Assembly: GCA_026002875.1 (NCBI GenBank)
Contig: BPGE01000001.1
Coordinates: 4,721,561 to 4,745,560 of the forward strand
Length of the DNA stretch: 24,000 nt
Direction of reading: 5' to 3'
Source of the DNA: Bryobacteraceae bacterium
GTDB lineage: Bacteria; Acidobacteriota; Terriglobia; Bryobacterales; Bryobacteraceae
Positions 11,967 to 14,069 of the stretch are shown here, piece after piece. The translations under genes and the position numbers were made by a program. Position 1 is the first letter of the stretch; every line of letters starts with the position of its first letter. The notes under the pieces were generated by a model. It did not search any database. It was not told the DNA's origin and saw only the letters and a list, made by a program, of their open reading frames with translations.

Positions 11967-14069
11967 ATGCACAAGCCGATCAAGTATGTTGAGAAGGCCG
12001 TGACGCTGGCGGCCAAGGCCATTTGGCCGGTCTTCGACACGCTCAACTCGATCAAACCGAACCCCAGCTTCACGCCGAAATGGTCGGACAAGCCGCTGCT
12101 GAAATCCTGGGAGAAGATGAAGCCGCCACTGGGCTGGCCCCGCGAGACGGACTCCCTCTGCCCCCGGTGCATCCCCGAGATCCGCAAGGAGATCCTGGAC
12201 GGCAAGAAGGATGTCAGCATCCTGGTCAATGAGCGCCCCGGCGAGATCAAGGCCAAGATCATCGAGCGCGACGGCAAGATCCTCATGGTGAAGGATTGCC
12301 CCATCCACGGGCACTTCGAGGACGTGATGTCGATCGACCCGGCCTTTTTCCGCCATTTGGAAGAGGTGTTCCCGGGGCGCGACATCCGCGCTCATAACGA
12401 CGAGGATCTGCACCGCCACGGTTCCTCGACGATCACCCATGGCCGCGGTTCGGTGCTCACGATCGACCTCACCAACCGCTGCAACATGATGTGCGACCCG
12501 TGCTTCATGGACGCCAATCAGGTGGGCTTCGTCCATGAGCTGACGTGGGAAGACATCAAGACGCTGCTCGACAACGCCCTGAAGATCAAGCCCCGCCGGC
12601 AGATGTCGGTGCAGTTTTCCGGCGGCGAGCCGACGCTGTCGCCCTACTTCCTCGACGCCATCCGTTATTGCCGCAAGGTCGGCTACAACTCCGTGCAGGC
12701 GGCCACCAACGGCATCGAGTTCGCCAAGAGCCCCGAGTTCGCCCGCGCCGCCGCCGAAGCCGGGCTGCGCTACGCCTACCTGCAGTTCGACGGCATCGGC
12801 AACGCGGCCAACTCGCACCGCGCCGTCGGCAACCTGTTCGACGTGAAGCTCCGCGCCATCGAGAACCTCTACAACGCGGGCGTCGAGATCGTTCCCGTCA
12901 TCACGATCATCAACGGCATCAACAACGAGCAGGTGGGCCGCGTCATCCAGTTCGCGCTCGACAACCCCAAGAAGATCAGCTTCCTCAGCTTCCAGCCCGT
13001 CAGCTTTACCGGCCGCGACGAGGAGATCACCGACGAGCGCCGCATGGCCCAGCGCTACACGCTCAGCCACCTGGCGCATGACGTGAAGAACCAGACCGGC
13101 CTCGGCGAGCCGGTCCGCGACTGGTACCCCATCTCCTTCATGTCGACCTTCACCGACTGGGCCGACCTCGTCCACGGGCCGAACGCCCAGTGGGGCCAGC
13201 TGAGCTGCGGCTGCCACCCGAACTGCGGCGTCGGCATGGCCGTGATGGTCGACAAGGAAACGAAGGAAGCCGTCCCGGTCACCAAGTTCCTGAACGGCGA
13301 CCGGCTGGCCCGCGACGTGGCCCGCATCAACGACGCCGCCCGCGGCAAGTTCCTGTCCGTCCTCGGCATGGCGCTGGCCCTGATGCGGAACTACGATCCC
13401 TTCCAGGCGCCCACGCACTTCAAGCTGGCGGACCTGCTGAAGAAGTTCGACAAGACCTTCGGCGCCACCGGCCGCAACTACGGCAAGGTGAGCGGCGACC
13501 GCACGATGGAGGACATCCAGAAGCGCCGCGCCGACCGCTGGAACTTCCTGTTCATCGCCGGCATGTGGTTCCAGGACCTCTTCAATTACGACTTCCGCCG
13601 CACCGAGCAGTGCATCATCCCCTACGCCACGCAGGAGGGCGAGATCAGCTTCTGCGCCTACAACACCGGCGTGGGCTGGCGGAACATCGTCGAGAAGATG
13701 CACATGACGGCCACGCTCACCAGGTGGTACGAGGAGCACGGGCGGCATGAGATCTTCGCCGGCAACAAGAGCGTGAAGCTCAACTCCACCGAGCACCACC
13801 TGGTCCTGCGCGACGAAATCGTCACGAAGGAGCGCCAGACCGACCTCGACCGCCTCGGCATTGCCAAGACGGCGCGCGAAGAAAAGATGCGCGAGCGCGA
13901 CATGAAGCTGCGCATGCAGCAGCAGGCCGAGCACGAGCGCATGATGGCCCTCTACCGCAAGCATGTGCTCAAGGAGCCCGATTCCGGTCTCGTCCAGATC
14001 AAGGGCATCGCTCCTGCGGCTCCCGTCAAGGAGAAGCAGGAAGAGACCGCCGGCGCGCTCGGCGACTGA
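11967..14069 (+). CDS. Large radical SAM protein, Tes/GDGT-MAS-like (COG1964-type) candidate membrane-spanning lipid synthase
   Basis: 700-aa ORF with the canonical CX3CX2C motif (RCNMMCDPC, C172/C176/C179, nt 12480-12503) and SGGEPTL. It has an N-terminal CPRC...CPIHGH metal ribbon, extra Cys clusters (SCGCHPNCG; QCIIPY...ISFCAYN) and FIAGMWFQDLFNYDFRR. A charged, coiled-coil-like C-terminal extension of about 100 aa follows. The radical SAM call is firm; the subfamily assignment is from memory. Confidence 0.85.
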   Translation: MHKPIKYVEKAVTLAAKAIWPVFDTLNSIKPNPSFTPKWSDKPLLKSWEKMKPPLGWPRETDSLCPRCIPEIRKEILDGKKDVSILVNERPGEIKAKIIERDGKILMVKDCPIHGHFEDVMSIDPAFFRHLEEVFPGRDIRAHNDEDLHRHGSSTITHGRGSVLTIDLTNRCNMMCDPCFMDANQVGFVHELTWEDIKTLLDNALKIKPRRQMSVQFSGGEPTLSPYFLDAIRYCRKVGYNSVQAATNGIEFAKSPEFARAAAEAGLRYAYLQFDGIGNAANSHRAVGNLFDVKLRAIENLYNAGVEIVPVITIINGINNEQVGRVIQFALDNPKKISFLSFQPVSFTGRDEEITDERRMAQRYTLSHLAHDVKNQTGLGEPVRDWYPISFMSTFTDWADLVHGPNAQWGQLSCGCHPNCGVGMAVMVDKETKEAVPVTKFLNGDRLARDVARINDAARGKFLSVLGMALALMRNYDPFQAPTHFKLADLLKKFDKTFGATGRNYGKVSGDRTMEDIQKRRADRWNFLFIAGMWFQDLFNYDFRRTEQCIIPYATQEGEISFCAYNTGVGWRNIVEKMHMTATLTRWYEEHGRHEIFAGNKSVKLNSTEHHLVLRDEIVTKERQTDLDRLGIAKTAREEKMRERDMKLRMQQQAEHERMMALYRKHVLKEPDSGLVQIKGIAPAAPVKEKQEETAGALGD

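Follow-up and report, generated by a model that had tools for sequence, protein, structure and literature searches.

This study concerns a gene for a 700-amino acid (aa) radical S-adenosylmethionine (SAM) protein, here termed Tes-like, which lies in a 24,000-nucleotide (nt) stretch of contig BPGE01000001.1 from a Bryobacteraceae bacterium (assembly GCA_026002875.1), hereafter the window. The open reading frame (ORF), whose limits are exactly those of the initial annotation, exceeds all others in the window in its third-position G+C (GC3; 0.94, the values for metK and tig being 0.89 and 0.86), and its homologues span 100% of its length, the closest ones (97% identical) coming from Bryobacteraceae metagenome-assembled genomes (MAGs). 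The initial annotation, made from the letters alone, had rightly taken the host for an acidobacterium (Terriglobia, Bryobacterales, Bryobacteraceae) and had seen in the protein a relative of Tes, the tetraether synthase of archaea, also known as GDGT-MAS, and hence a candidate synthase of membrane-spanning lipids. As detailed below, the gene has nothing exceptional within the recognisable, divergent Tes-like subfamily to which it belongs, and we are inclined, by a modest degree, to regard its product as a Tes-type enzyme that couples, tail to tail, the iso-C15 chains of bacterial membrane glycerolipids. The features of the locus are collected in Table 1.

Table 1. Features of the Tes-like gene, its product and its surroundings (positions are those of the window).
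Feature	Position	Strand	Remarks
Tes-like gene, 700-aa radical SAM protein	11967..14069	+	complete ORF, ATG start
N-terminal extension (aa 1-60)	11967..12146	+	not in canonical Tes; NCBIfam Tes match begins at aa 61
Rubredoxin-like/zinc-ribbon domain (aa 61-125)	12147..12341	+	PF23545, E 6.7e-13
Segment replacing the [Fe4S4]N motif (aa 136-162)	12372..12452	+	no Cys; sequence '...AHNDEDLHRHGSSTITHGRGS'
Radical SAM core (aa 163-380)	12453..13106	+	PF04055, E 1e-18
Predicted C-terminal domain with auxiliary cluster and lipid pocket (aa 381-600)	13107..13766	+	7TOL alignment
C-terminal extension (aa 601-700)	13767..14066	+	predicted: order at 601-635, one long charged helix over 636-666, disorder from 674 to 700
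Intrinsic-terminator-like hairpin	14096-14124, T-rich tail to 14134	+	12-bp stem, 10 G-C pairs, 5-nt loop
Candidate sigma-70-like promoter GTGGCA-17-TAAAAT	11824..11852	+	~115 nt 5' of the Tes-like ATG; consensus scan only
queG-like gene	10690-11916	-	upstream, divergent from the Tes-like gene
Tetratricopeptide repeat (TPR) gene	9503-10723		recurrent neighbour
hsp20	14579-15061		downstream; Pfam; start 510 nt beyond the Tes-like gene
metK	15313-16539		downstream; Pfam
hsp20 promoter-like site TTGACA-17-TAGAGT	14544-14572	+	near-consensus; directly 5' of the hsp20 start

Profile searches place the protein next to Tes. Its top NCBIfam model is Tes (NF045702), with 314.3 bits over aa 61-580, which does not reach the equivalog cut-off of 450 bits that the canonical Tes sequences P0186, P0189 and P0194 pass with 474-516 bits. 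The second model, TrsS (NF045646), covers the N-terminal half only and gives 204.5 bits where 490 are required, and the remaining radical SAM families (SPASM/twitch peptide maturases and cofactor enzymes such as NirJ, AhbC/D, MoaA and PqqE) match the radical SAM core only, with at most 73 bits against cut-offs of 180-650, so that none of the peptide maturase or cofactor families raised as other possible placements in the initial annotation comes near. In Pfam, the zinc ribbon PF23545 (Zn_ribbon_HMPTM, 48.4 bits, cut-off 27) is followed by PF04055 (Radical_SAM, 68.4 bits, cut-off 29.5), a pair that defines the broader Tes-like architecture and is shared by the listed homologues with both domains. 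This architecture, whose family number we take to be COG1964, carries the JGI label 'uncharacterized radical SAM superfamily Fe-S cluster-containing enzyme'.

Solved structures and the predicted fold point the same way. A PDB sequence search returned GDGT-MAS (7TOL) with an E-value of 9.4e-62 over 495 residues, the next match being MoaA (E 3e-5), and direct comparison with GDGT-MAS gave 32.3% identity (E 3e-66), within the range of 29.8-33.7% (median 31.4%) found for the family of similarly long homologues, hereafter the long family, against the archaeal enzyme. The AlphaFold2 model, for which 46 sequences were aligned (mean predicted local distance difference test score, pLDDT, 88.8; predicted template modelling score, pTM, 0.88), is matched by Foldseek to 7TOL with an E-value of 3e-35, a target-normalised template modelling score (TM) of 0.88 and a root-mean-square deviation of 3.4 A over 550 columns (about 1e-35 and TM 0.86-0.88 when 7TOL and 7TOM are taken together); the next fold, SkfB, aligns with a TM of 0.43 over the radical SAM barrel only. 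The comparison of model and crystal structure that the initial annotation had envisaged thus comes out on the side of GDGT-MAS, the model having the entire four-domain fold of that enzyme, including its lipid-binding C-terminal domain. On these profile, alignment and model grounds, the window protein is a homologue of archaeal Tes/GDGT-MAS (M. jannaschii MJ0619, 7TOL/7TOM; M. acetivorans MA_1486), with the same predicted fold and domain order. It is not, however, a Tes equivalog, since it falls short of the NF045702 cut-off and also lacks the Cys ligands of one Fe-S cluster. The Tes-like label of the initial annotation therefore stands as far as the best profile, structure and fold matches go, but does not extend to equivalog rank.

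The metal sites make this relationship more precise. GDGT-MAS holds four of them, that is, a rubredoxin-like iron (ligands C9, C12, C33 and H36), the cluster [Fe4S4]N (C73, C77, C80 and a His), the radical SAM cluster and the cluster [Fe4S4]C, which is bound by three Cys and the labile Met439 and carries the S-C substrate intermediate (Lloyd et al., 2022). We mapped these ligands by the 7TOL alignment (PDB chain offset +20, His-tag) and by two multiple alignments, tabulated them across 46 sequences and scored their invariance in 78 orthologues from related genomes. The rubredoxin-like Cys3His site (C65, C68, C111 and H114) aligns with that of GDGT-MAS, its two halves being separated by ~22 additional residues, and is invariant (78/78), as are the CX3CX2C radical SAM motif (C172/C176/C179, nt 12480-12503; 78/78) and the SAM loop FQPVSFTGR (Q343/S346/R350; 78/78), which is identical to that of GDGT-MAS (Q268/S271/R275). 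By alignment, C420, C549 and C563, together with M533 as the counterpart of Met439, are the candidate ligands of [Fe4S4]C; they too are invariant (78/78), have two further conserved cysteines (C414 and C416) beside them and lie partly in a region (residues 521-580) with 95-99% identity across orthologues. C235 was rejected as a ligand, being Ala or Ser in most orthologues. Three of the four GDGT-MAS metal sites therefore appear to be retained, namely the rubredoxin-like site, the radical SAM cluster and the C-terminal cluster. All the motifs that the initial annotation had quoted could be placed (CPRC 65-68, CPIHGH 111-116, CNMMCDPC 172-179, SCGCHPNCG 413-421, FIAGMWFQDLFNYDFRR 529-545, QCIIPY 548-553, SFCAYN 561-566 and KERQTDLDRLG 621-631), and its suggestion of several Fe-S clusters plus a rubredoxin-like iron holds for these three sites.

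It fails for the fourth. Where canonical Tes carries CPxxCGxCxxH, aa 136-162 of the window protein have no Cys ligand for [Fe4S4]N, and neither has any of the tabulated long-family members (27/27); the full CCCH set was found in 12/13 tabulated sequences of the canonical Tes clade, the exception (P0259) belonging to a candidate-phyla-radiation bacterium. A highly conserved, His-rich motif, AHNDx.LHxHG(S/T)ST(I/V)xHGRG, stands in its place (aa 143-158, nt 12393-12440), in which H143, H149 and H151 are invariant in the 78 orthologues and H158 is present in 67/78. This motif may serve to bind another metal or may have a structural role only, and the confidence of the AlphaFold2 model is lower over the segment (block-mean pLDDT 69-83).

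Canonical Tes proteins, ~500-550 aa long, end near query residue 590-606, and the long family adds an extension at each terminus, for which searches with aa 1-60 and aa 601-700 gave no significant Pfam or PDB sequence match. The N-terminal extension (69-84% identity in the 78 orthologues) is modelled as an amphipathic helix at aa 2-28 (hydrophobic moment 0.50-0.58, block-mean pLDDT 85-96) that is followed by the conserved motif SFTPKWSDKPLLKS..K.KPPLGWPR. The C-terminal extension, a charged stretch of ~100 aa that the initial annotation had correctly judged foreign to the archaeal enzymes, is kept in 78/78 acidobacterial orthologues, nearly free of gaps, yet it is the least conserved region of the protein (34-69% identity). 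It contains 20 K+R and 18 D+E per 100 aa, and aa 601-673 are predicted to be ordered (block-mean pLDDT about 80-91); the earlier description of this region as coiled-coil-like is compatible with the single long helix of the model. Transmembrane anchoring was ruled out, there being no hydrophobic segment (peak 19-residue Kyte-Doolittle mean of 1.29), and we speculate that the amphipathic N-terminal helix and the charged C-terminal helix serve in binding to the membrane surface or to a partner, oligomerisation being a further conceivable role of the C-terminal one.

The subfamily is widespread. A genome scan found it in at least 597 acidobacterial species-level genomes, the best 80 of which encode full-length proteins that are 76-88% identical to the window protein. 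The carriers include Bryobacterales, Terriglobales/Acidobacteriaceae (among them two cultured species, Granulicella aggregans, formerly Edaphobacter, and Acidipila rosea), a Solibacter-labelled MAG and some MAGs labelled Blastocatellia or Vicinamibacterales, the orthologues in the Solibacter-labelled MAG and in G. aggregans being 78-79% identical. A profile search further detected a 706-aa member (P0478), 79% identical, on the complete chromosome of Candidatus (Ca.) Koribacter versatilis Ellin345. The family is abundant in soils, as seen from metagenome protein clusters of 2074, 880 and 579 members, and a second homology search with the G. aggregans orthologue, like a look-up of cluster members, gave metagenome proteins almost exclusively. 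Copies that are 77-81% identical also occur in MAGs labelled outside Terriglobia, that is, 'uncultured Bordetella sp.' (L008), Clostridia (P0490), and Blastocatellia and Vicinamibacterales (L026/L044). Mis-binning probably accounts for the Bordetella and Clostridia labels, and the Blastocatellia-labelled MAGs may be genuine carriers from acidobacterial subdivision (SD) 4, since that label recurs in several independent MAGs.

Conservation of the protein is out of step with that of its surroundings. At syntenic loci, identity is 77-88% in the Tes-like protein, 50-68% in QueG and 44-70% in the TPR protein, and this excess of 20-30 percentage points over its neighbours argues for unusually strong purifying selection. 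Conservation of this order across taxonomic orders is unusual for a lipid-modifying enzyme. In a distance tree computed on 469 core columns, bacterial proteins without [Fe4S4]N form a clade apart from canonical Tes, which comprises the long family and relatives on longer branches. Among the latter, P0136 (Terriglobus roseus DSM 18391 WP_014786616, 624 aa), P0146, P0153 and P0185 have lost the Cys ligands of the C-terminal cluster, as has P0254, which keeps the [Fe4S4]N motif; all five retain the rubredoxin site and the radical SAM motif, and from their sequences look like degenerate or neofunctionalised paralogues.

The idea that bacterial Tes homologues make the membrane-spanning lipids of Acidobacteria, which the initial annotation described as already proposed, was indeed published in 2022, as a hypothesis. 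Zeng et al. (2022) listed 456 bacterial homologues, with K. versatilis (42% identity) and S. usitatus (40%) as top hits, and proposed a role in the synthesis of brGDGTs (branched glycerol dialkyl glycerol tetraethers); they also reported that E. aggregans, which makes brGDGT-Ia, has a single homologue (32%, E 4e-61). Chen et al. (2022) picked S. usitatus as a brGDGT producer via its 40% homologue, and Halamka et al. (2022) described two homologues in that organism, Acid_5929 (545 aa, 40.2%, E 1e-139) and Acid_2410 (714 aa, 30.1%, E 4e-62), 'one or both' of which were proposed to condense iso-C15 diethers. As late as 2026, a review and an AEM paper present the acidobacterial route as an open question. 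What is added here is the distinction of the two paralogues and the inventory of metal sites.

With its 700 aa and 32.3% identity to GDGT-MAS, and with a family range of 29.8-33.7%, the window protein most likely corresponds to Acid_2410 (Q025C7, Ca. Solibacter usitatus Ellin6076) and not to Acid_5929 (Q01U00), an orthology that we judge from length and score, and its subfamily probably provides the sole Tes homologue of E. aggregans. Acid_2410 and the E. aggregans homologue share with it a length class of ~700-714 aa, ~30-32% identity to archaeal Tes with E-values of about 1e-61 to 1e-62, and hosts in the class Terriglobia, S. usitatus being a member of the Bryobacterales, like the host of the window, and G. 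aggregans of SD1. Acid_5929 and the top K. versatilis homologue belong to the same superfamily and have the same proposed brGDGT role, but they match the archaeal enzymes in length and show 40-42% identity with MA_1486 (E 1e-139 to 1e-149), and the aligned sequences of this tier keep the CPxxCGxCxxH of [Fe4S4]N and fall in the other clade. The candidate synthase of the initial annotation is thus a Tes-like relative, but it is the long and distant paralogue (Acid_2410 type, 714 aa, 30%) and not the Acid_5929 type (545 aa, 40%) that has been emphasised.

The distinction has a bearing on how earlier surveys are read. Sahonero-Canavesi et al. (2022) showed experimentally that Thermotoga and Thermoanaerobacter owe their diabolic acids to the radical SAM enzyme Mss, and found no Mss homologue in the selected acidobacterial genomes that they screened. 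Their screen for Tes used thresholds of E <= 1e-50 and identity >= 30%, and we infer that it under-counted the long family, since a 30% threshold falls inside the range of that family. Mss (T. maritima, T. ethanolicus) couples fatty-acyl tails into diabolic acids when expressed in E. coli, the kind of product that we propose here, but it is confined to anaerobes, and since BLAST with an archaeal Tes query found no Tes homologue in the genome of either organism, Mss has no detectable similarity to Tes (Mss itself being compared via the literature only). Mss accounts for anaerobes but was not found in the Acidobacteria screened.

By transfer from GDGT-MAS, we infer the substrate, product and mechanism of the window protein as follows. 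It would be a peripheral lipid-modifying enzyme that forms a C(sp3)-C(sp3) bond between the terminal carbons of two iso-C15 chains, its product being the C30 iso-diabolic-acid skeleton that forms the core of both tetraester lipids and brGDGTs. [quoted passage not shown] Electron entry would have to differ from that in the archaeal enzyme because the surface [Fe4S4]N cluster is gone, a loss that might, speculatively, be linked to an aerobic lifestyle. Other differences from GDGT-MAS/Tes are the 22-aa insertion in the rubredoxin domain, the two terminal extensions and the nature of the hosts, which are bacterial, mostly aerobic and endowed with fatty-acid rather than isoprenoid lipids.

Several lines of evidence support this coupling role. 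The protein combines Tes homology and fold with invariant catalytic residues and very strong conservation; no Mss was found in the Acidobacteria screened; and the protein is broadly present in acidobacterial groups reported to make iso-diabolic acid, the reports of which cover SD1, 3, 4 and 6. E. aggregans is especially instructive because, having a single homologue of this type, it would have to use this subfamily if a Tes-family enzyme couples its tails. There is also much that weighs against a coupling role. The score below the equivalog cut-off and the absence of [Fe4S4]N set the protein apart from canonical Tes, its hosts are mostly aerobes, and the [Fe4S4]N-less clade is functionally plastic, as the C-terminal cluster is gone from sister lineages such as P0136. 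Two cultured organisms that produce membrane-spanning lipids, S. usitatus and K. versatilis, hold in addition a closer canonical Tes homologue (40-42%), which may be the real synthase, and no lipid-biosynthesis gene is linked to the Tes-like gene in 80 related loci. From the literature, Sahonero-Canavesi et al. (2022) recovered Tes homologues in just 3/14 acidobacteria producing iso-diabolic acid and favoured a convergent pathway, a 2025 study calls bacterial Tes homologues 'not experimentally confirmed', and we found no published functional test of one in the literature covered, Chen et al. (2025), on 'Tes' and tetraesters in K. versatilis, not included.

In the most serious rival, the short canonical Tes (Acid_5929 type) or an unrelated enzyme makes the membrane-spanning lipids and the long subfamily carries out another radical reaction on a lipid or hydrophobic substrate, be it a cross-link, a cyclisation or C-S chemistry. 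The strongest cultured producers do hold the short paralogue too, the long family is a separate clade without [Fe4S4]N that misses the equivalog threshold, and the unusual degree to which it is conserved suggests, together with the added termini, constraints foreign to canonical Tes. We nevertheless consider this rival rather unlikely: the residues on which the Tes mechanism depends (C-terminal cluster with its Met, SAM loop) are invariant, no profile match indicates an alternative chemistry, and E. aggregans, reportedly equipped with this type alone, makes brGDGT-Ia.

Much less probable is a non-lipid enzyme, whether a pterin C-methyltransferase (the legacy '7,8-dihydro-6-hydroxymethylpterin dimethyltransferase', or HMPTM) or a TrsS-like protein. 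HMPTM is the JGI name of many members and gave its name to the Pfam N-terminal domain, and TrsS is the second-ranked NCBIfam match; the HMPTM name, however, stems from MJ0619, for which Lloyd et al. (2022) could not corroborate it and which they showed to be GDGT-MAS, the TrsS match stays far below its cut-off (204 versus 490 bits) and in the N-terminal half, and the predicted fold keeps the whole lipid-binding C-terminal domain. One could also imagine a Tes relic with impaired catalysis or a regulatory role, in which loss of [Fe4S4]N abolished turnover, as one of four metal sites is gone and ligand decay goes further in related lineages. Such a relic is hard to reconcile with the very strong purifying selection on the catalytic C-terminal motifs (95-99% identity), the 78/78 invariance of the remaining ligands, a GC3 that is the highest in the window and an abundance in metagenomes that reaches clusters of 2074 members, and we give it scarcely any credence.

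A broader proposal, which we put forward tentatively and with less confidence than the coupling role itself, would be that the long [Fe4S4]N-less subfamily, and not the short Tes, is the general acidobacterial coupling enzyme. It would make the iso-diabolic-acid skeleton in SD1, SD3 and perhaps SD4, it would have been under-counted at the 30% threshold, and both the loss of the cluster and the terminal helices would be adaptations to aerobic hosts and ester-linked bilayer substrates. The stakes are considerable, since few terrestrial proxies for past temperature and pH are in wider use than brGDGTs. The subfamily combines strong conservation with ubiquity in Terriglobia and a very high abundance in soil metagenomes; were it the synthase, it would (i) provide a gene marker for the producers of brGDGTs and iso-diabolic acid in soils, (ii) explain membrane-spanning lipids in organisms reported as 'lacking Tes' and (iii) show that the Tes mechanism can run on two, not three, [4Fe-4S] clusters.

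As for its expression, the Tes-like gene can fairly be read as a monocistronic unit with its own terminator, as the initial annotation had it. The queG-like gene upstream is divergent, a terminator-like hairpin begins 27 nt past the Tes-like stop codon with a T-run directly after its stem, and hsp20, 510 nt off, has its own promoter-like site, which supports its independent transcription. The mechanical queG-like ORF has ~58 N-terminal residues that are unmatched in the queG-like ORF of a related locus (L005, 357 aa), and from this comparison the true start is probably the ATG at 11742; a start there would leave a divergent intergenic region of 224 bp (11743-11966), with the promoter-like site at 11824-11852 inside it.

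The downstream genes hsp20 and metK, confirmed by Pfam, had been noted earlier as possibly coincidental neighbours, which is what they turn out to be. Across 80 related loci (L001-L080), none (0/80) has hsp20, metK, tig or any other of the downstream genes adjoining the Tes-like gene, which rules out the suggested link of metK to SAM supply. An all-versus-all clustering of 805 neighbour ORFs yielded only queG (18/80 loci, adjacent and divergent in 17) and the TPR gene (14/80) as recurrent neighbours, within Bryobacterales, and no further family that recurs. The locus of K. versatilis gave no functional clue either.

Elsewhere in the window, where no tRNA or Rfam hit was found, three regions deserve a brief mention. 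An 870-aa ORF (21311-23923, - strand) shows a good coding signal, with a GC3 of 0.80, and has neither a Pfam match at E <= 1e-5 nor an NCBIfam match at E <= 1e-3. A small class-I methyltransferase (20690-21277, + strand) has as its top NCBIfam model an archaeal-type protein-lysine N-methyltransferase (166 bits, below the cut-off of 200), and nothing in the profile results ties it to lipid methylation. Finally, the ~1.3 kb between a malectin-domain gene and a DUF2905 gene (7739-9076), in which there is no high-GC3 ORF, tRNA or Rfam match, has the lowest G+C of the window (0.616 for 8001-9000).

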